A DNA stretch of 64,000 nucleotides from Limnochordia bacterium. Its GTDB lineage: Bacteria > Bacillota > Limnochordia > DTU080. Below are positions 17,201 through 22,576 of the stretch, piece after piece (the first letter of the stretch is position 1; the number at the start of each line of letters is the position of its first letter). Under the pieces are notes generated by a model, which saw only the letters and a list, made by a program, of their open reading frames with translations, made no database searches and was not told where the DNA came from. Location of the stretch: positions 195,742-259,741 of the forward strand of contig JBMNJG010000005.1 in the NCBI GenBank assembly GCA_050951545.1, written 5' to 3'. Position numbers and translations under genes: made by a program.

Positions 17201-17648
17201 CACGAACAAGCTGATCGAAACGAACCCCCCCTGTTACGGAGATAGCCTTGGTGGTTGGCCCCATAGACCCTGCTACAAAGCGAAGCTTGCCCGATGTGCT
17301 GTAGCGATCAGCCGCTTTTCGAGCGAGCCTGGCTGCTTCATAGGTAAGGGCGTAGGCTTGATCTGCGAGCTCGTACTCCGCCAAGACGAGGGAGCTGGAT
17401 CCGAAGCTGTTGGTCTCGATGATATCAGCGCCTGCCCGCAGATAGCCCTCATGGATGGCCAGGATCACATCGGAGCGAGTTCTGACCAAGTGCTCGTGGC
17501 ACCCCTCGTAGCGAGGGTCTCCAAAATCAGCGGCAGACAGGCCTCGTTGCTGAATCGCAGTGCCCATGGCCCCGTCGAGAACCAAGATCCGTTCCTGCAG
17601 CGCCCGACGAAAACGCTCGACCCGGTGATCCTGACTCGCCATGCTCAT
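14208..17648 (-). CDS. metH: Cobalamin-dependent methionine synthase
   Basis: 1146 aa with homocysteine S-methyltransferase barrel, pterin-binding, B12-binding (DxHxxG) and AdoMet activation domains. Start overlaps the upstream gene by 4 nt. Confidence 0.9.
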   Translation of the reverse strand: MSMASQDHRVERFRRALQERILVLDGAMGTAIQQRGLSAADFGDPRYEGCHEHLVRTRSDVILAIHEGYLRAGADIIETNSFGSSSLVLAEYELADQAYALTYEAARLARKAADRYSTSGKLRFVAGSMGPTTKAISVTGGVRFDQLVRAFREQARALVDGGVDYLLLETCQDTRNIKAGLVGIEQLSQEWGRPIPVAVSVTIEPGGTMLAGQDMEALITSLEHVDLLYLGLNCATGPEQMADHLRVMAERAAVAVACVPNAGMPDEDGHYGETPHHMARAVERFAQQGWLNVVGGCCGTTSEHIRALVETVSGYSPRTPKAITATFVSGIDNLEIGESNRPVLVGERANVIGSRQFRRLIHEAQYEEAAEVARRQERSGAQILDICVSDPDRDERQDMEALLSNVIRQVRAPLMIDSTDPRVIEPALTFCQGKAIINSVNLEAGERRIDEVVPLVRRYGAALVVGLIDEGGMAVSRQRKLEIALRAYEILVVKYGMRPTDIIMDPLVFPCATGDKEYVGSVRETIEGLRLIKKALPTCKTLLGISNVSFGLPPGAREVLNSVFLYECTEAGLDLAIVNTERLRRYASLSARERDLALKVLFCPDDETIGTFAAHYRDVRSTAPPTPQLSLDERLTRHVVEGSKNGLVDDLALKLEEASPLEIVNGPLMEGMNEVGRLFNRNELIVTEVLQSAEVMKAAVAYLESRIDQTALMTKGTVILATVQGDVHDIGKNLVEMVLGNSGYRIIDLGTKVAPAELVKAVREHQPDLIGLSGLLVRSAQQMVVTAEELTRAGLCPPMLVGGAALTQSFTHKRIAPAYGGLVAYASDVMHGLALANQIMDSDQRQVLVDQLVQEAAQLSPLGSREFTAAAPQQLSAVSMPSAVPEPADFDRHVLTAIDLDSVWGYMNPISLYNHHLGLKTPVHRAWAAQDERAHMLRALVEEVQAECRQGLMRASAVWQYFPAASRGDCLILYHPENGDVLAEWVFPRQHAKRGLCLADYTLPVTSDSRDSVCLFVVTAGHGIAREAERLKEQGDYLRSHVLQALAIETAEAAAEWLHARMRGWWGFPDDPALPTQRILQGHYRGRRYSFGHAACPDLALQKDLFRLLQPEEIGVELTETLMMDPAASISAIVFHHPQCVYFTVR

Positions 17649-19696
17649 TTGCCCACCTCATCGCCTGATGACCGTACGTGCTGACGAACCTGCTCCACGA
17701 ACGTGCAGATAGGCTCATGCTTGCCAAAAGAGAGCACCACGTAGATCCCGGCAATAAGCGAGCTGGCCTGCGTCACGAGTTCAGCGGCTTGCGTGAGGCC
17801 GACCCTGAGTCCATCGTCCCCGGCGAGTTCAAGCTCGCGGCGGATGGCCTCCGGCACAGTGATCCCGGGGACCTCATTGTGAAGGTAGACCGCATGCCTG
17901 TAGCTGTGGAGAGGCATCACTCCCAGCAAGATAGGCACATCGCAGCCCCCAATCTCATCCAAGACCCGATGCAACGGGGCCAGATCATAGACGGGTTGCG
18001 TCATCACAAACTGAGCCCCGGCTGCCAACTTCCGGCGAAAACGATCTGTCTCACGCGCCAGATCGTCAGCGTTCGGGTTCAGAGCACAGCCTACTGCGAA
18101 GTCCGTGGCCTGCCCAGTCGGGTTGCTAAGCAGGTCACGTCCAGCGTTGAGTTCGGTAAGCACACGGATAAGACCGATGGCGTCCACATCATATACCGGC
18201 GTTGCCTGCGTGACATTGCCCAACGATGGCGGATCGCCAGTCAACGCCAGTATATTGCGCAACCCCAAAGCATGGGCGCCCAGCAAATCGGATTGCAGCC
18301 CCATCAGATTGCGGTCCCGCGTTGTCAGATGCACAATGGTTTCCACGCCAACTCCATGCTCAATGAGATGCGCACTGGCCATGGCGCCCATCCGCACCCG
18401 GGCCATCGGACTATCTGCCACATTGATGCAGTCAACACTAGCAGCCTTGAGCGCTGTGGCAGCTTCGAGGAACTTCTTGGTCACCGAACCCTTGGGAGGA
18501 TCCAACTCGACACTGATGACAAACTCACGGCCTAGGTTGGCCCGCAACCCTCGATCAGCTGCCCGGGGAGTAGCTTCCGTAACCTCCTCCACAGGACGAA
18601 CCCGCGGGCGAAGAGGGCTCGTACCCTGACCAGCGGGGGCTGCCATCTTCCTCTCCAACTTGACGCTTGGCGATACGGCCTTCGACGCCCCGACTGCGTC
18701 GCCGTTGGTGCTGTTGGTTTGCCGCGCGTCGAGATACTCTCTCATGGCTGCGATGTGCTCCGGTGTCGTGCCGCAGCAGCCGCCAATCAAGCGTACACCC
18801 CGACTGATGAACCCCTCCATCATCGCTGCGAAGTACTCCGGTGTGGCTGAGTAGAGCACGCGGCCGTCTACGTATGCTGGCAGACCAGCGTTGGGCATGG
18901 CAGACCACATGACAGGGAACGTGATGCTTTCCTGCAGCGTCTCCAATGCCTCCACCACGTGGACAGGACCGCTGCTGCAGTTGACACCGATCACATCAGG
19001 GTAGGCCGCAGGATCCAAGTCGTTTAGGGCGGCCGCCACGCCCTGCGGCGTATACCCAGCGGCGGTGGCCTGCCTCACACCATTACCCAGACCCGGCAGA
19101 TTACGGGGAGCACCATCTGGCCAGAAGGCGAATTGCACAACGATGGGCAGTTTGGAGATCTCACGAGCAGCTCGAATGGCCTCACTCGCCTCCACGGGAT
19201 CTGCCATAGTCTCGATAACGAAAAGATCGACACCACCGGCAAGCAAAGCCTCCATCTGTTCTCGGAAAAGAGCGCGCATCTCTCGCCGTCCCATTGTGCC
19301 CGCTACGCCAATTGGTAAACCTAGAGAGCCCACTGATCCCGCCACCAGGGCGGCCTCACCAGCTATCTCGCGCGCTGCTCGAGCAATCTTAGCACCCCAC
19401 ACATTGATATCCCACACCCGCTCCTCCTGACCGCATTTCTGCAGTCTGATCCGGTTAGCACCATAGGTGTTGGTCTCAATCAAGGATGCTCCGGCCTGCA
19501 GATAGTCCAGATGCGCCTTCTGGACTATCTCCCGATCTGATAGATTCAGACACTCAAAGGATCTCGCCGCCCGGTCACCTCGCTCGTGAAGCAAGGAACC
19601 CATGCCGCCATCAGCCAACAAGACCTCCCCCTGCAGACGTGAGAGGAATGCGCGCACAGCGGAAGGGACATCCGCTCTGCCAGTAAGTGGAGCCAT
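17645..19696 (-). CDS. yitJ: Bifunctional homocysteine S-methyltransferase / 5,10-methylenetetrahydrofolate reductase (YitJ-like)
   Basis: N-terminal half is an Hcy S-methyltransferase barrel (GGCCGTTPEHI). C-terminal half is an MTHFR TIM barrel (FVISVELDPPKG...HLTTRD...ALTGDPP). Confidence 0.85.
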   Translation of the reverse strand: MAPLTGRADVPSAVRAFLSRLQGEVLLADGGMGSLLHERGDRAARSFECLNLSDREIVQKAHLDYLQAGASLIETNTYGANRIRLQKCGQEERVWDINVWGAKIARAAREIAGEAALVAGSVGSLGLPIGVAGTMGRREMRALFREQMEALLAGGVDLFVIETMADPVEASEAIRAAREISKLPIVVQFAFWPDGAPRNLPGLGNGVRQATAAGYTPQGVAAALNDLDPAAYPDVIGVNCSSGPVHVVEALETLQESITFPVMWSAMPNAGLPAYVDGRVLYSATPEYFAAMMEGFISRGVRLIGGCCGTTPEHIAAMREYLDARQTNSTNGDAVGASKAVSPSVKLERKMAAPAGQGTSPLRPRVRPVEEVTEATPRAADRGLRANLGREFVISVELDPPKGSVTKKFLEAATALKAASVDCINVADSPMARVRMGAMASAHLIEHGVGVETIVHLTTRDRNLMGLQSDLLGAHALGLRNILALTGDPPSLGNVTQATPVYDVDAIGLIRVLTELNAGRDLLSNPTGQATDFAVGCALNPNADDLARETDRFRRKLAAGAQFVMTQPVYDLAPLHRVLDEIGGCDVPILLGVMPLHSYRHAVYLHNEVPGITVPEAIRRELELAGDDGLRVGLTQAAELVTQASSLIAGIYVVLSFGKHEPICTFVEQVRQHVRSSGDEVGK

Positions 19697-19964
19697 CTCG
19701 CCAAATCCCTTCTAGTCTTACGGCTTCGTTCACAATGGAATCAGCCTGCGGATAATGATAATGATCAGCCAACTTCAACACCACAGCGGCGATCACCTTT
19801 TCCAGAGCACAGTAGCATCACCAAGAACGAACGTGACCATTCCATGGTGCCCCACAAGAGGCGCAGGGGGTGACCGACACCCGCAATGAGTGGGTTGACT
19901 GCTTCGGGAAGCTGGCCGAGCAGTCGGCTGCCAGCGAAACGCAGGTCTGAAGATCCGGGCAGAC

Positions 19965-20008
19965 AGAACCAGTGAGCATCGACCGCTTCTTACCGAATTG
20001 GGTGATGT
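19965..20008 (+). repeat. Single copy of the about 40-nt core (GCATCG..CTTCTT.CCGAATTGGGTGATGTAACCG) shared with the tandem repeats at 21558..21830
   Basis: Direct comparison with 21569..21608, 21677..21716 and 21781..21820. A downstream GGGCTAGCGC.G.CCTACCC block is also shared with 21860..21885. Confidence 0.6.
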
Positions 20009-20205
20009 AACCGGTGTGTGCACGGGTCTGCTTTGGCAGGACGGCACTGGTCACCGCTGCGGGCTAGCGCTGTCCTACCCAGATGCGCCCATCACGACCG
20101 GAAAACGTGCCATCGCGCCTCGCTTGGAAGAGCTCGGTGCACGCCGCCTCTGGTTTTGTCTGAATCGACCTTTTGGTGAAGGAACCCTACCGGAGAGTGT
20201 CGAAC

Positions 20206-21279
20206 ATGTATTCGGGACCCGAACAGACATTCTGGCTGGAGGTGGCACCCTTGGATATCGAAGAGGTTCGCGTGCCGATCTCGTTGCTGCTCACTAGCCA
20301 GTTAAGAGCGACGGATAAGGTAGTTTGGCTGGCTCTCACACTCGACGCTGAATTGGGGCAGCGAGCCCGTCTGTCGCCCACTCGCCTCGCTGCTCGTACC
20401 GGTTTGTCCCGACCCACCATCCGCAAGGCTACGGCAAAGCTAACCACTGAGGGCTGGTACAATCTGCCCACAGGCGTCAACCGGGCCCCAGCAAAAGGGC
20501 TGTCGGGGCCAAGGGTGGTCATGCCTACTGAGCTGATCATCGCCACGGAGGTCAGTGCTCAGGCCAAGGTGGTCTATGGTGCACTGCAGGCCACGCCGGA
20601 TTACCGTAATTTGCAGGGCGTGTTCACATATGCATCTGTGGCCCGGATGATGAGTCTAGACGCCAAGACGGTCAAGCGGGCCGCTCGACAGCTGGCCAAG
20701 CTGGGCTGGCTGGAGACGCAGCAGGAGCACAAGCAAGCTCCCATTTGCTTCAGCCTCTGCAACCCGGTCGCCCGCAGGTACATGGATGAACTGCTAGCGG
20801 CGCAGCAGCGACTCGACGAGGCTGAGTTCTTCGGACAGACCTTGATGCAGGAATACCTATCGGCTATTTTCGACTCCGATGACCATAAGGACAACGCGTC
20901 TCCCCGTTTTCTAGTCAACCCGGCTACTGGCATGTTACTGGAGCTCGACCGCCACTATGACCTCGAGGCCGTGGCCTTTGAGTTTAACGGGCCACAACAC
21001 TACACCCCTACCAAACGGTTCTCGGCTGACGTGGTCGCCAAGCAGATGGAACGTGACAAGACCAAGCGTGAATTGTGTGAGGAGAACAAAGTCACGTTGG
21101 TTGTGATCCATGCCAAGGACCTGTCCTGGCTCACCATGAAGTTCAAGGCTGGCCAACTGCTGCCGTTGCGAAGCGACCTTAACAAGAAACTCCTCAGGTA
21201 CCTCGATCTGAGGAGTCGCTTCTACCGCGAGACGGCTAAGGGTGGCTGGGCGCCCACCAGTGACGCCGCCAACGAATAG
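20206..21279 (+). CDS. Protein with two winged-helix DNA-binding domains and a C-terminal DUF559 (Vsr/PD-(D/E)XK endonuclease-like) domain
   Basis: C-terminal LELD...AFEFNGPQHY...ERDKTKRELCEENKVTLVVIHAKDL matches the DUF559 pattern (vEyDGeqH...rD.rr...L...GW.VvRv). Two wHTH blocks upstream. ATG at 20206 with GGAGAG SD; the ORF track starts at TTG 20173. Confidence 0.65.
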   Translation: MYSGPEQTFWLEVAPLDIEEVRVPISLLLTSQLRATDKVVWLALTLDAELGQRARLSPTRLAARTGLSRPTIRKATAKLTTEGWYNLPTGVNRAPAKGLSGPRVVMPTELIIATEVSAQAKVVYGALQATPDYRNLQGVFTYASVARMMSLDAKTVKRAARQLAKLGWLETQQEHKQAPICFSLCNPVARRYMDELLAAQQRLDEAEFFGQTLMQEYLSAIFDSDDHKDNASPRFLVNPATGMLLELDRHYDLEAVAFEFNGPQHYTPTKRFSADVVAKQMERDKTKRELCEENKVTLVVIHAKDLSWLTMKFKAGQLLPLRSDLNKKLLRYLDLRSRFYRETAKGGWAPTSDAANE

Positions 21280-21557
21280 CCAACGACGGCCAAGAGTGCG
21301 CTATAGCCTCGAATCATCTCTCCCCCTTCACCAAAAGGGGTCTCAGCAACCTCTCGCTGCCGCTCGCTGAAGCGGGTGCCCCTATGCCCTCGCCCAGGTG
21401 CCCTCGCGACGAGTCGTGACAATAGCAGACCCGTGGTGCGCCAACGGGCGCTGCGCTTCCTGCTGTAACCGCCTCGAAATCACAATGTTGCGCCCAATAG
21501 CCATCTTGCCTTGCCCAGAACCCGCCTCGTCGCCTGGTCCACTTCCTGTGATCGAAG

Positions 21558-21830
21558 ATGAAACTGGAGCATCGCCCTCTTCTTGCCGATTTGGGCAATG
21601 TAACCGACCCCGGGCCCCGACCCGGGCCCCGACTCACCAGCCGGGTCCGGGACTGACGGAAGTGAAACTGGAGCATCGCCCTCTTCTTGCCGATTTGGGC
21701 AATGTAACCGACCCCGGGCCCCGACCCGGGCCCCGACTCACCAGCCGGGTCCGCGACTGACGGAAGTGAAACCGAGTGGGCATCGCCCCCTTCTTGCCAA
21801 ATCAGGCGATGTAACCGACCTGTGTATCGC
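21558..21830. repeat. Tandem direct repeat, about 106-bp unit x 2.5 copies, containing GC palindromes (CCCCGGGCCCCGACCCGGGCCCC)
   Basis: Units 21558..21663 and 21664..21768 are nearly identical. A partial, diverged third unit at 21769..21830 continues into sequence similar to 20009..20100. Confidence 0.8.
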
Positions 21831-22009
21831 CCACGACGAGCCTGGGCATCGACACACGACGGGCTAGCGCGGCCCTACCCCGACCCAACTGATCACAGTC
21901 GGTGCAAACCCTAGCATGGAGGAAGACCACAGTCAGAATCCTAGTCATACTTGAAATGAACTGGTGGGGCCTTTCCAAAGGCGGCGCAACAGCGATACGC
22001 GAATTCTCG

Positions 22010-22060
22010 TCACCGTATTCGCCCGTATTCCCCCGTGTTCACGCCGACGAGTATTCGCGG
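22010..22060 (+). promoter_or_regulatory. Four direct GTATTCGC-like repeats immediately upstream of the tRNA-Arg promoter (possible upstream activating or factor-binding sites)
   Basis: cgtattcgc / cgtattccc / cgtgttcac / gtattcgcg spaced about 10 bp apart. Confidence 0.3.
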
Positions 22061-22090
22061 TTGCGTGGCTCGAGGGATAGTGCTATAATG
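22061..22090 (+). promoter_or_regulatory. Sigma-70-type promoter of tRNA-Arg (TTGCGT-17bp-TATAAT, extended -10 TGcTATAAT)
   Basis: Consensus hexamers at correct spacing about 12 nt upstream of the tRNA 5' end. Confidence 0.7.
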
Positions 22091-22102
22091 TGAAAGCGGT
22101 AG

Positions 22103-22179
22103 GCGCTCGTAGCTCAGCTGGATAGAGTGCTTGACTACGAATCAAGAGGCCAGAGGTTCGAGTCCTCTCGGGCGCACCA
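22103..22179 (+). tRNA. tRNA-Arg (anticodon ACG)
   Basis: Cloverleaf with 7-bp acceptor GCGCUCG/CGGGCGC, D-arm, anticodon loop CUACGAA, T-loop GGUUCGAGUCC and 3' CCA encoded. Followed by a hairpin at 22181..22226. Confidence 0.9.
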
Positions 22180-22180
22180 G

Positions 22181-22226
22181 CAAGAAACACCTCCACGAAG
22201 CGGTTTTCGGGAGGTGTTTCTTGTTT
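22181..22226 (+). terminator. Hairpin terminator after tRNA-Arg
   Basis: aagaaacacctcc-...-gggaggtgtttctt followed by gtttgtt. Confidence 0.6.
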
Positions 22227-22576
22227 GTTGGGGGTTGGGGAAGGGCGGTTTTGTAGCCAATGTGTAGCCAACAGGTTCTGCCACGAAGGCTAGGGTATGT
22301 ACCAAGGCGGTTGTCGAGCAGTCGGGTCGACGCGTCGAACCCGAACCTAGATGCAGCCGCACACTAATCTATCTGTAGCTTGCGTAATAAGGGACGCTTT
22401 GGTGAATATCCATAAAAAGAAACAGGAAAATCCTTCTAGGGTGTGGTAATACTATCCGGACATTGAAGCCGCCTACTCGGATGTCCCAGTTACCCGCGGA
22501 GATGTGCGCTTGGTCGCGCTAAGCAACAAGAGGTATCCATGTCGATGATGCCACGCCTTGAATATCAGGGAGGTCC

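Follow-up and report, generated by a model that had tools for sequence, protein, structure and literature searches.

What kind of genetic unit is formed by a gene for a protein with two winged helices and a nuclease-like domain, together with the direct repeats that lie on both sides of it, in the chromosome of an uncultured Limnochordia bacterium? We addressed this question for a locus within a 64,000-nucleotide stretch of contig JBMNJG010000005.1 (hereafter, the window), where the gene is indeed, as a preceding sequence-only reading had proposed, the sole one between the met genes and a tRNA-Arg(ACG) gene: there is one credible open reading frame, ending at 21279, and to its left, on the minus strand, lies a gene for an S-methyltransferase/MTHFR fusion (17645-19696). 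The anatomy of the locus is summarized in the table.

Table. Features of the repeat-flanked gene and its right-hand neighbourhood (window coordinates)
Feature	Coordinates	Strand	Remarks
L-copy, the upstream repeat: prefix AACCAGTGA and 38-nt core 19976-20013	19966..20013	+	left boundary of the unit common to contexts
L extension, ending in GGGCTAGCGCTGTCCTACCC (20061-20080)	20014..20085	+	potential GGG(C)TAG/CTACCC hairpin
GACCGGAAAACGTGCC	20096..20111	+	resembles the GTCCGAAAAGTGCC element in upstream repeats of other paralogs; resemblance only
Two tandem Cheo/LexA-box-like palindromes	20201..20233	.	CGAACATGTATTCG 20201-20214 and CGAACAGACATTCT 20220-20233
CDS: two winged helices, helical linker, Vsr-fold nuclease	20251..21279	+	likely start TTG 20251
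Non-coding spacer, belonging to the unit	21280..21553	+	90-98% identity between copies
Two tandem T units, 104 and 107 nt	21554..21764	+	cores 21569-21606 and 21673-21710, each with a GACCCGG...CCGGGTC hairpin-like tail
R-copy: core 21780-21817, 43-nt segment, GGGCTAGCGCGGCCCTACCC (21861-21880), through ...CAACTGATCAC	21765..21896	+	~97% identical to the L009 R-copy
Stretch alignable with L009	21897..21994	+	~65-70% identity only
tRNA-Arg(ACG)	22103..22179	+	neighbour gene

The 38-nt repeat core GCATCGNCCNCTTCTTNCCNANTNNGGNNATGTAACCG has 4 exact matches in the window, all on the plus strand, one upstream and three downstream of the gene. This arrangement had been recognized from the letters of the sequence, and the copies are real, with the earlier positions off by 1-11 nt; the number of matches expected by chance is 0, and 100 dinucleotide shuffles yielded none, even when up to 3 mismatches were tolerated. 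Each repeat unit begins ~10 nt 5′ of the core; downstream of the gene, 2.5 copies follow one another in tandem at a period of 104 (21554-21820). The conserved blocks of the 38-50-nt core are GAGCATCG.CC, TTCTTGCC and ATGTAACCG. The additional block attributed to the outer copies was found as well: GGGCTAGCGCNGNCCTACCC occurs at 20061-20080 and 21861-21880, i.e., twice against 0.13 expected. The repeats never occur apart from the gene in the 617 kb searched, where an Infernal sequence-only model built from 20 copies recovered only the 22 known ones and no solo copy. The core pattern has 0 matches in GTDB genomes, which places the host species outside the reference genomes; it also has 0 matches in IMG/VR and is present on 1 contig (L006) in JGI metagenomes.

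Could these repeats function as RNA, namely, as a structured cis-regulatory 5′ leader in front of the gene and an array of sRNAs, in tandem, behind it? Transcription direction would account for the presence of every copy on the strand of the gene, but the conserved box is reversed in orientation in other family members, and a promoter and terminator scan identified none that frames the repeat units. Two alternative hairpins can be drawn for the core, and in helix B pairing (Watson-Crick or G-U) survives every substitution on the plus strand only (99% of cells paired, with one double change); however, for neither core helix does covariation exceed that of shuffles. Likewise, other paralogs do possess upstream or flanking repeats that fold strongly (z -4.5 to -7.5), whereas the fold z-scores of the L, T and R units and of the whole array of the window lie between -0.05 and -1.5, whichever strand is folded. 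At E<=10, the Rfam search returned no credible family in 19700-22300, with only tRNAs reaching the gathering score, and no group I or II intron. Thus, the description of the element as structured found no confirmation, and a role of the repeats as RNA appears quite improbable.

The protein (MGI6609905.1; ACOX4G_05250) probably starts at the TTG codon given in the table, preceded by a ribosome-binding site, GGAGG, at 20238-20242; gene callers choose ATG 20206 (357 aa), and the longest open reading frame begins at TTG 20173 (368 aa). Pfam HTH_36 matches the protein twice (other Pfam matches are HTH_24, GntR, IclR and MarR), which, together with the AF2 model (pLDDT 88.7), bears out the two predicted winged-helix domains. 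They occupy the N-terminal half consecutively and superpose on Pi bound to its iteron. The more specific assignment of the N-terminal domain to the AbiEi_4 type was not upheld, with no AbiEi family among the Pfam matches at any threshold tried.

The C-terminal domain adopts a Vsr-type PD-(D/E)XK fold, with the Vsr-type alpha/beta core present. Hence, of the Vsr/DUF559-like assignment made earlier, the fold stands, whereas the DUF559 profile match, on which that reading had itself let its claim depend, was not obtained: Pfam DUF559 (PF04480) matched neither the window protein at E<=1, nor the 40 homologues, nor 21 isolated C-terminal domains at E<=10, and Pfam Vsr did not match the protein at any E-value tried. 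Pfam DUF2726 matches the C-terminal domain weakly (0.001-0.011), and a PDB sequence search with profiles at E<=10 yielded winged-helix proteins only and nothing for this domain. The C-terminal half is homologous to phage ‘homing nucleases’, its closest nuclease homologues. In lacking a Pfam DUF559 or Vsr match and in having N-terminal domains that are not AbiEi_4, the protein differs from Vsr, DUF559 (NGO0050, structure 3HRL) and RAP-domain proteins. Residues D259, E270, H276, R294, D295 and K298 do not vary among 40 sequences, and N272 is nearly invariant; the catalytic motif reads F-E-F-N-G-P-Q-H-Y in the window protein. The DUF559 consensus has Asp at the position of N272 (E-x-D-G motif), and the near-invariant Asn in its place makes nuclease activity less than certain.

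Tandem winged helices and direct repeats adjacent to the gene are shared with iteron-binding initiators (Pi, RepE, Rep_3 type; phage O-like proteins), and, as in those systems, the single upstream repeat could serve autoregulation. A conceivable origin of the locus is a small replicon, with a Rep-type initiator and its iterons (origin) captured in the chromosome. Yet, the units of the window are 92-107 nt long and the core 38-50 nt, compared with iterons of 17-22 bp, and the repeats are spaced by 92-107 nt rather than ~22. The protein carries an additional, fused nuclease domain and is encoded in several chromosomal copies; neither tblastn nor blastn produced a match among 72,556 plasmids, no plasmid or phage carrying the full-length gene was found, and viral contigs contain the nuclease domain only. 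Reading the sequence by eye disclosed no AT-rich unwinding region or DnaA boxes. We consider descent from such a replicon highly improbable.

Gene and repeats behave as one dispersed, multicopy unit, a conclusion supported by five different flanking contexts, by a single MAG with at least 4 copies and by the loss of synteny in a relative; the idea of a mobile or selfish element, suspected from the sequence, is to that extent supported. Across five unrelated contexts (window/L007, L001, L006, L008 and L009-L011), the unit, consisting of the upstream core, the gene, a spacer of ~290 nt and the tandem units, retains 92-98% identity. Same-MAG accession numbers indicate that the genome of the window encodes, in addition to the window protein, three members at >=90% identity, one of which is truncated. 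Proteins of this MAG (locus-tag prefix ACOX4G) include MGI6609905.1, MGI6609995.1, MGI6610145.1 and MGI6611754.1. The 90% cluster of the window protein comprises 45 sequences, and all contigs with an identical neighbouring gene end in or at the unit, where assemblies break. In the relative L172, whose met genes are 74% identical, MarR-ABC-BSH genes and tRNA-Arg(ACG) are found where the unit would sit, the tRNA gene being inverted relative to its flanks between the window and L172.

The left boundary of the unit is marked by the L-copy (19966), where homology with L001, L006, L008 and L009 begins; the flanks to the left of it are unrelated between contexts (29% identity), with no remnants of T units found there. 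The L extension is 90-98% identical in four contexts and gives way to unrelated DNA (40%) in L001, which keeps the upstream core despite the replacement of the adjoining 70 nt. Other copies contain 2 to 4 or more T units of 92-94 nt each. The right end differs between contexts and is not defined; the stretch 21897..21994 may be an earlier rightward portion of the unit, or else target sequence common to both loci. Neither terminal inverted repeats nor target-site duplications were seen at the five left and three right junctions. No transposase or recombinase domain was detected by Pfam, NCBIfam or PHROG matches, no integrase was found, and PADLOC reported nothing for the locus. In these respects, the unit differs from insertion sequences and transposons, which are defined by such enzymes and ends.

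Two of the five contexts end in a near-identical R-copy upstream of a tRNA-Arg gene (ACG in the window, CCG in L009), and the L and R copies have the GGGCTAGC...CCTACCC block in common, as if a site-specific insertion element targeted the region upstream of tRNA-Arg genes and the outer copies were its att-like junction repeats. However, three of the five contexts are without a tRNA, no tRNA is found near 66 other family loci, and R-like DNA is missing at the tRNA-Arg(ACG) of L172. Furthermore, in contrast to tRNA-targeting integrative elements, the unit is devoid of an integrase or transposase, and its repeats are neither derived from nor related to the tRNA and are not accompanied by a target-site duplication. 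The adjacency to a tRNA gene, initially taken as a trait of the element, is thus not a feature of the family, and we give hardly any credence to tRNA-directed insertion.

Codon positions of the gene are 98.0/98.2/94.7% identical between copies, and 41 of the 70 variable sites are third positions, indicating that the gene is under purifying selection; the spacer, with a divergence close to the third-codon-position rate and no 3-nt periodicity (14/12/11), appears to evolve near-neutrally. The divergence between copies (3-8%) exceeds that of typical active IS copies and so fits old paralogs subject to gene conversion. An empty site in a close relative was sought via the neighbouring gene and not found, the closest relatives (79% and 74%) being too short or rearranged, and neither a circular junction nor a solo repeat turned up, so that active mobility is something we infer rather than observe.

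The wider family consists of 388 clusters at 50% identity (E<=1e-30) from Limnochordia and Symbiobacteriaceae, with as many as 11 diverged loci per genome, truncated members, and a copy number that varies from 0-1 to >=11 between related genomes; the family copies in JAWLDA01 diverge by 17-35%. Among ~60 other paralog loci, only L030 has flanking direct repeats, and most members are without downstream repeats. Bracketing by direct repeats, as initially described, is accordingly a property of the window lineage and of L030, and not of the other loci examined. Boxes common to many members lie upstream of the genes. The TTACATCA box is enriched 22-fold there, and the 3′ part of the window core is the reverse complement of the TTACATCA(C) box; because the box occurs in either orientation, it is best viewed as a DNA site rather than RNA. 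Of the suggestion that the repeats are a cis-acting element recognised by the encoded protein, the DNA version is accordingly favoured by the inverted TTACATCA inside the core, and the RNA version, with no matching RNA family, is not. Given that the region upstream of the window gene aligns only weakly and locally with those of the JAWLDA01 paralogs (z <= 4.3), the shared box comes down to a 10-11-mer. At family gene starts, GAAC-N4-GTT[CT] is enriched 37-fold; both Cheo-like boxes of the window are conserved in all copies of the unit, and, by pattern, the gene start carries the Cheo box (GAAC-N4-GTTC) of the Firmicutes LexA regulon. It is also conceivable that the family protein, and not LexA, recognises the GAAC-N4-GTTC boxes.

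Taken together, these results lead us to propose, tentatively, that the locus at 19966-21896 (roughly 1.9 kb) belongs to a selfish unit, specific to this lineage and present in several copies, that resembles a homing endonuclease gene, is under SOS control and uses its repeats as DNA sites bound by its own protein. We infer the following course of events from fold, repeats and boxes. The winged helices, arranged as in iteron-binding initiators, would bind the 38-50-nt core as double-stranded DNA, such that the single upstream copy would be an operator and the downstream tandem array a multi-site platform. LexA, sitting at the pair of Cheo-like boxes immediately ahead of the start codon, would hold expression off until released by DNA damage. 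The nuclease would then nick or cut near its bound sites, and repair by recombination or gene conversion could copy the unit to new places, homogenise the copies and expand or contract the array. There are precedents for both regulatory components: I-TevI represses its own expression, and LexA controls nucleases such as colicins through double SOS boxes. Like I-TevI, the homing-type nuclease of the window could use a copy of its own site as an operator, and, like those of the colicins, its tandem LexA-like boxes, identified by pattern only, immediately precede the start of a nuclease that may be toxic.

The same data can be read differently, as a domesticated host gene family of SOS-inducible, sequence-directed nucleases or regulators, in which old paralogs arose by segmental duplication followed by gene conversion, and the repeats are ordinary operators plus a locally amplified minisatellite. 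The divergence of the copies in the window lineage and in JAWLDA01, the purifying selection on all copies, the conserved regulatory boxes, the ragged ends without terminal inverted repeats, target-site duplications or a recombinase, and the confinement of the full-length gene to sequences other than plasmids and phages all agree with such a family. Less easily accommodated are the fluctuation of copy number between related genomes, the truncated copies, the absence of the unit from the syntenic site in a relative and the phage homing nucleases as nearest nuclease homologues; moreover, a host use for 4-11 near-redundant nucleases is hard to picture. We regard domestication as possible but, on balance, doubtful.

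The closest known counterparts of the proposed selfish unit are the free-standing, Vsr-like (EDxHD-type) homing endonuclease genes of phages, i.e., I-Bth0305I, Hef and ORF194 of Bacillus phage 0305phi8-36 (PMC3239194, PMC2677866). Unlike these, the window gene is chromosomal (Limnochordia) and lies outside any phage, intron or intein; its product is predicted to bind DNA via two winged helices and has no NUMOD motifs; and its motif is E-x-N-G-x-Q-H instead of EDxHD. The gene is accompanied by direct repeats and a tandem array, with no split target site seen, and belongs to a family with up to 11 diverged copies per genome. No cleavable, unoccupied allele was found among the relatives and the contigs with the neighbouring gene. 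Classical homing splits its target and does not bracket the gene with direct repeats, which counts against the homing interpretation.

The RAYT/REP and IS200/IS605 systems offer another comparison. There, as here, a gene of the nuclease type is flanked by short, hairpin-capable repeats, its presumed substrate, on one strand and without terminal inverted repeats or target-site duplications. The enzyme of the window is, however, not of the HUH/Y1 type, and its repeats are not scattered over the genome (617 kb of sequence contained none elsewhere than at the gene) and are direct rather than inverted pairs, with hairpins that are unsupported.

A bolder version of the proposal, which we deem decidedly unlikely, holds that the locus represents an unrecognised class of chromosomal mobile element: an autonomous gene, triggered by the SOS response, whose product, a Vsr-type nuclease guided by winged helices, brings about its spread and homogenisation through recombination induced by cleavage. 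What is recognised and recombined would be its own iteron-like array or, in sister lineages, hairpin repeats. Such an element would be a ‘homing’ gene that brings its own target, and of which genomes of Limnochordia and Symbiobacteriaceae have come to contain 4-11 copies.

If the selfish unit proposed here is the right reading, homing-endonuclease-like genes would extend beyond phages, introns and inteins to free-living, multicopy chromosomal elements controlled by DNA damage, equipped with repeats of their own and with a DNA-binding module taken over from replication initiators. This would be a new route of intragenomic spread and genome rearrangement, which here coincides with the synteny break and the inverted tRNA gene. 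It would also assign a function to several hundred unannotated proteins whose nuclease domain is covered by no Pfam model, and might provide a source of new sequence-directed nucleases with long, bipartite sites. Finally, the upstream or flanking tandem repeats of the sister lineages, with their strong folding, are represented in no RNA database and merit a study of their own.

The unit formed by the upstream core, the nuclease gene, the spacer and the downstream tandem repeats is best explained as a selfish, SOS-controlled, homing-endonuclease-like gene whose product would bind the repeated core through its winged helices. Four exact matches to the 38-nt core are present in the 64-kb window, one upstream and three downstream of the gene, and no match was found in 100 shuffles with up to 3 mismatches allowed. 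The sequence-only reading had recognized these same-strand copies, with repeat coordinates off by 1–11 nt and the rest right; its claim that a single gene separates the met genes from tRNA-Arg(ACG) also holds, since apart from this ORF no credible gene lies between the S-methyltransferase/MTHFR fusion and the tRNA. Downstream, the three copies are arranged in tandem at a 104-nt period, and the true repeat start lies ~10 nt 5′ of the core, with the prefix AAC[C/T][A/G]GTGA. Conservation of the core is concentrated in the blocks GAGCATCG.CC, TTCTTGCC, GG and ATGTAACCG, with variable positions between them, a pattern that would be in keeping with two winged helices contacting the DNA.

Features of the unit, its surroundings and related loci, with positions in the window or in the locus named
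Feature	Locus	Position	Remarks
38-nt core GCATCGNCCNCTTCTTNCCNANTNNGGNNATGTAACCG	window	starts 19976, 21569, 21673, 21780	all + strand
Block GGGCTAGCGCNGNCCTACCC	window	20061, 21861	after first and last core copies
L-copy	window		outer, upstream of gene; core, ~47 nt, GGGCTAGC block
T units	window		downstream; core, GACCCGG...CCGGGTC tail
R-copy	window		terminal, downstream; core, 43 nt, GGGCTAGC block
Cheo/LexA-box-like palindromes	window	20201-20214 (CGAACATGTATTCG), 20220-20233 (CGAACAGACATTCT)	tandem, directly before RBS
ATG chosen by gene callers	window	20206	within first LexA-like box
RBS GGAGG	window	20238-20242
Predicted start, TTG	window	20251
End of ORF	window	21279
14-nt inverted repeat CCTTTTGGTGAAGG/CCTTCACCAAAAGG	window	20169-20182, 21325-21338	perfect; either side of CDS
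12-nt pair	window	20021-20032, 21424-21435	common to window and L006
Sigma-70-like match TTCACA-16-GATAAT	window	19729-19756	10/12; divergent region of met gene and unit, outside shared unit
GATAAT microrepeat	window	19751-19765	x2.5
10-nt tandem repeat CCGTATTCCC	window	22013-22040	x2.8; ~65 nt upstream of tRNA-Arg(ACG)
tRNA-Arg(ACG) and promoter ATAGTGCTATAATGTGAAAGCGGT	window; L172	22103-22179; 2891-2967	conserved
Two direct (A/T)TACATCATG boxes	L182	240-360	28 nt apart, upstream region
Direct repeats bracketing gene	L030	2815-2950, 4010-4145	Symbiobacteriaceae DASPIW01
Upstream units of Limnochordia JAWLDA01 paralogs	L047; L031	2049-2786; 2330-2800	1–3 tandem units, ~285 nt each
T-box leader	L015	1404-1714	108 bits, minus strand

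By a rough hand estimate, ~0.01 occurrences of the 14-nt inverted repeat would be expected by chance; only 10 of its 14 positions are found in the unit's other copies.

The closest relatives of the window gene are not syntenic orthologues. Instead, the unit recurs in five unrelated contexts with the core some 200 nt ahead of the gene, ~290 nt of conserved spacer after it, and then 2 to 4 or more tandem units. In the window and L007, met genes lie on one side and tRNA-Arg(ACG) and a patatin gene on the other; L006 adjoins a cysA-like ABC ATPase gene, L008 has DUF4304 genes and a nucleotidyltransferase/HepT pair on its two sides, L009–L011 are placed between DUF421 and tRNA-Arg(CCG), and L001 provides a further context. 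Across contexts, homology begins on the left at the same point within a few bases, beyond which the flanks are unrelated (29% identity) and hold no T-unit remnant. Right ends vary, falling within a T unit in L001 and within a fifth, broken core in L008. The R-copy is present in the window and L009, ~97% identical as far as ...CAACTGATCAC, and is followed by ~100 nt at 65–70% similarity and then by tRNA-Arg genes of different isoacceptors. Neither a target-site duplication at the outer boundaries, a check proposed from the sequence alone, nor shared terminal inverted repeats were found at the unit copies, and the unit further differs from IS elements in having no transposase.

MGI6609905.1 (ACOX4G_05250), from a Limnochordia MAG, has the same sequence as the window protein. 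Three more members at ≥90% identity, one of them on the same 390-kb contig and one truncated, have accession numbers from the same submission, a 48% homologue shares the locus-tag prefix ACOX4G, and the 90% cluster comprises 45 sequences. Contigs with the identical neighbouring gene all terminate within the unit or at its edge, the behaviour expected of a repeat collapsing in assembly; Logan contigs end ~326 nt from the met gene, the position of the L-copy.

A synteny break, which the sequence-only reading had made a test of mobility, is evident in L172, from a related Limnochordia (MTHFR-fusion protein 74% identical). The outer order of met genes, patatin, DUF697 and PAP2/GDPD is kept, a MarR-ABC-BSH efflux cluster takes the place of the unit, and tRNA-Arg(ACG) has the opposite orientation with respect to the patatin and met genes. 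No R-like DNA was found at this tRNA, and a tRNA-targeting element, for which the tRNA-Arg genes next to the window and L009 copies might speak, is a weak alternative. The main rival holds that the genes are domesticated paralogs whose dispersal is ancient and whose similarity has been maintained by gene conversion. The 3–8% divergence between copies, their ragged ends and the failure to find a clean empty site among the relatives compared keep it plausible; we regard it as less likely than the selfish-element reading.

Over five copies, identity at codon positions 1, 2 and 3 is 98.0, 98.2 and 94.7%, and third positions account for 41 of the 70 variable CDS columns. The spacer is ~94% identical without 3-nt periodicity and is hence non-coding and nearly neutral. 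Mosaicism is evident among the copies: the 5′ region of the window copy matches that of L006 at 100%, but the first half of the gene at 95.9%, and in L001 the L extension is replaced by unrelated DNA (40%) with the core still kept. These patterns speak for recombination between copies and for selection to retain an upstream core.

In the protein, Pfam recovers HTH_36 twice, along with many winged-helix families, and leaves the last ~150 residues without any match. The two predicted winged helices thus stand, but the proposed DUF559-like C-terminus found no profile match: neither DUF559 nor AbiEi_4 was hit by the window protein, 40 homologues or isolated C-terminal domains at E≤10. Residues D259, E270, G273, Q275, H276, Q291, R294, D295 and K298 are invariant. 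The putative catalytic motif, F-E-F-N-G-P-Q-H, resembles the DUF559 consensus E-x-D-G-x-x-H, but Asn replaces Asp. Residues 211–328 share 32% identity with a “homing nuclease”, the product of free-standing ORF194 in Bacillus phage 0305phi8-36 (BLASTP 1e-13; tblastn 8e-6 in 2.3 Gb), PHROG families labelled homing endonuclease or intron-encoded nuclease match at ~1e-7, and viral contigs carry the nuclease domain alone, without the rest of the protein. PHROG replication-initiator families match the winged helices (4e-9). An integrated replicon is a weak alternative, for the plasmids searched gave no match to the protein, and the unit differs from iteron replicons in lacking plasmid context and in repeat unit size. 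Homologue N-termini, the RBS and a low-confidence model N-terminus point to TTG as the probable real start.

The Cheo/LexA-box pattern of Firmicutes is GAAC-N4-GTT[CT]. It is 37-fold enriched at −350 to +30 of family gene starts (18/72 loci), or present at 22/72 loci when relaxed to GAAC-N4-[GA]TT[CT], the form that the window boxes fit. Within 400 nt upstream of family genes, a second box, TTACATCA(C), shows 22-fold enrichment: 11 loci hold 12 hits, all but one on the coding strand. It sits 47 nt ahead of the LexA-like box in JAWLDA01 and CAYRIY01 paralogs and is duplicated in L029 and L182. In L182 (P0005 lineage, protein 49% identical), the direct boxes are followed by a good promoter, TTCCAA-17-TACAAT, with CGAACATGTATACG between the hexamers, which is the classical LexA-repressed layout. 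Read as its reverse complement, the TTACATCA(C) box reappears in the window core as the 3′ block, GGTGATGTAAC. Because the box is tied to the gene family yet usable in either orientation, a duplex-DNA protein site seems a better fit than RNA. An RNA element is a weak alternative. The core can be drawn as either of two hairpins that exclude each other, with 89.9% (9-bp) and 99% (5-bp) of cells paired; the shorter shows one double change, and its G-U pairs work on the + strand only. The earlier description of the element as structured is nonetheless unproven for the window lineage, because Rfam gave no match, folding of the complete array gave a minimum-free-energy z-score of −1.5 on each strand, L, T and R units folded singly scored −0.05 to −1.5, and covariation of both hairpins does not exceed shuffled controls.

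Under the reading as a selfish, homing-endonuclease-like gene, the upstream core bound by the winged helices would serve as operator and the downstream array as platform. DNA damage would relieve the putative LexA control, and the expressed protein would nick or cleave DNA close to the sites it occupies; through recombinational repair, the unit would be copied and homogenized and its array resized. Observed are the anatomy, copy number, contexts and selection, the fold and homology of the protein and the boxes, whereas binding, LexA control, cleavage and the way the unit spreads are inferred. In its working, the unit would come closest to a free-standing Vsr-like homing endonuclease gene, differing from EDxHD homing endonucleases in motif, NUMOD region and location. 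The system would be categorically new only if a new mobility mechanism were found to act on the self-carried array as its substrate, which we consider improbable.

An exhaustive profile search yielded 388 clusters (50% identity) at E≤1e-30, and 139 family loci were confirmed in species-representative genomes, nearly all in Limnochordia, Symbiobacteriaceae, Thermaerobacter and unnamed Bacillota MAGs; full-text literature searches returned no description of the family. Among the 80 loci kept, Limnochordia 15dZY3.bin.78 has 11 diverged copies and several other genomes 4–6; some matches are truncated. The 15dZY3.bin.78 paralogs are 65–83% identical, with homology extending 0.4–1 kb upstream and ending at the stop codon. 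Members in MAGs labelled Mycobacterium leprae and Bacteroidota (L036, L059, L063, L087 in JBLNEM01, L089 in JBLNBY01) probably reflect mis-binning or contamination. Flanking direct repeats are not general in the family: outside the window lineage, they were seen in L030 only, where the ~130-nt copies, unrelated in sequence to the window core, fold to long hairpins (z −3.9 and −7.5) and differ by a G-C to A-U compensatory change. In the 1 kb upstream of family genes, tandem repeats are common. The JAWLDA01 units are closed by a 15-bp stem, GUCCGAAAAGUGCCCG/CGGGCAUUUUUCGGAC (z ~−4.5), with compensatory changes between paralogs; matching no Rfam family, they are a candidate new structured repeat linked to the gene family. 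In L015, the T-box leader adjoins a tandem repeat (211 nt, x3) that lies upstream of a family gene.
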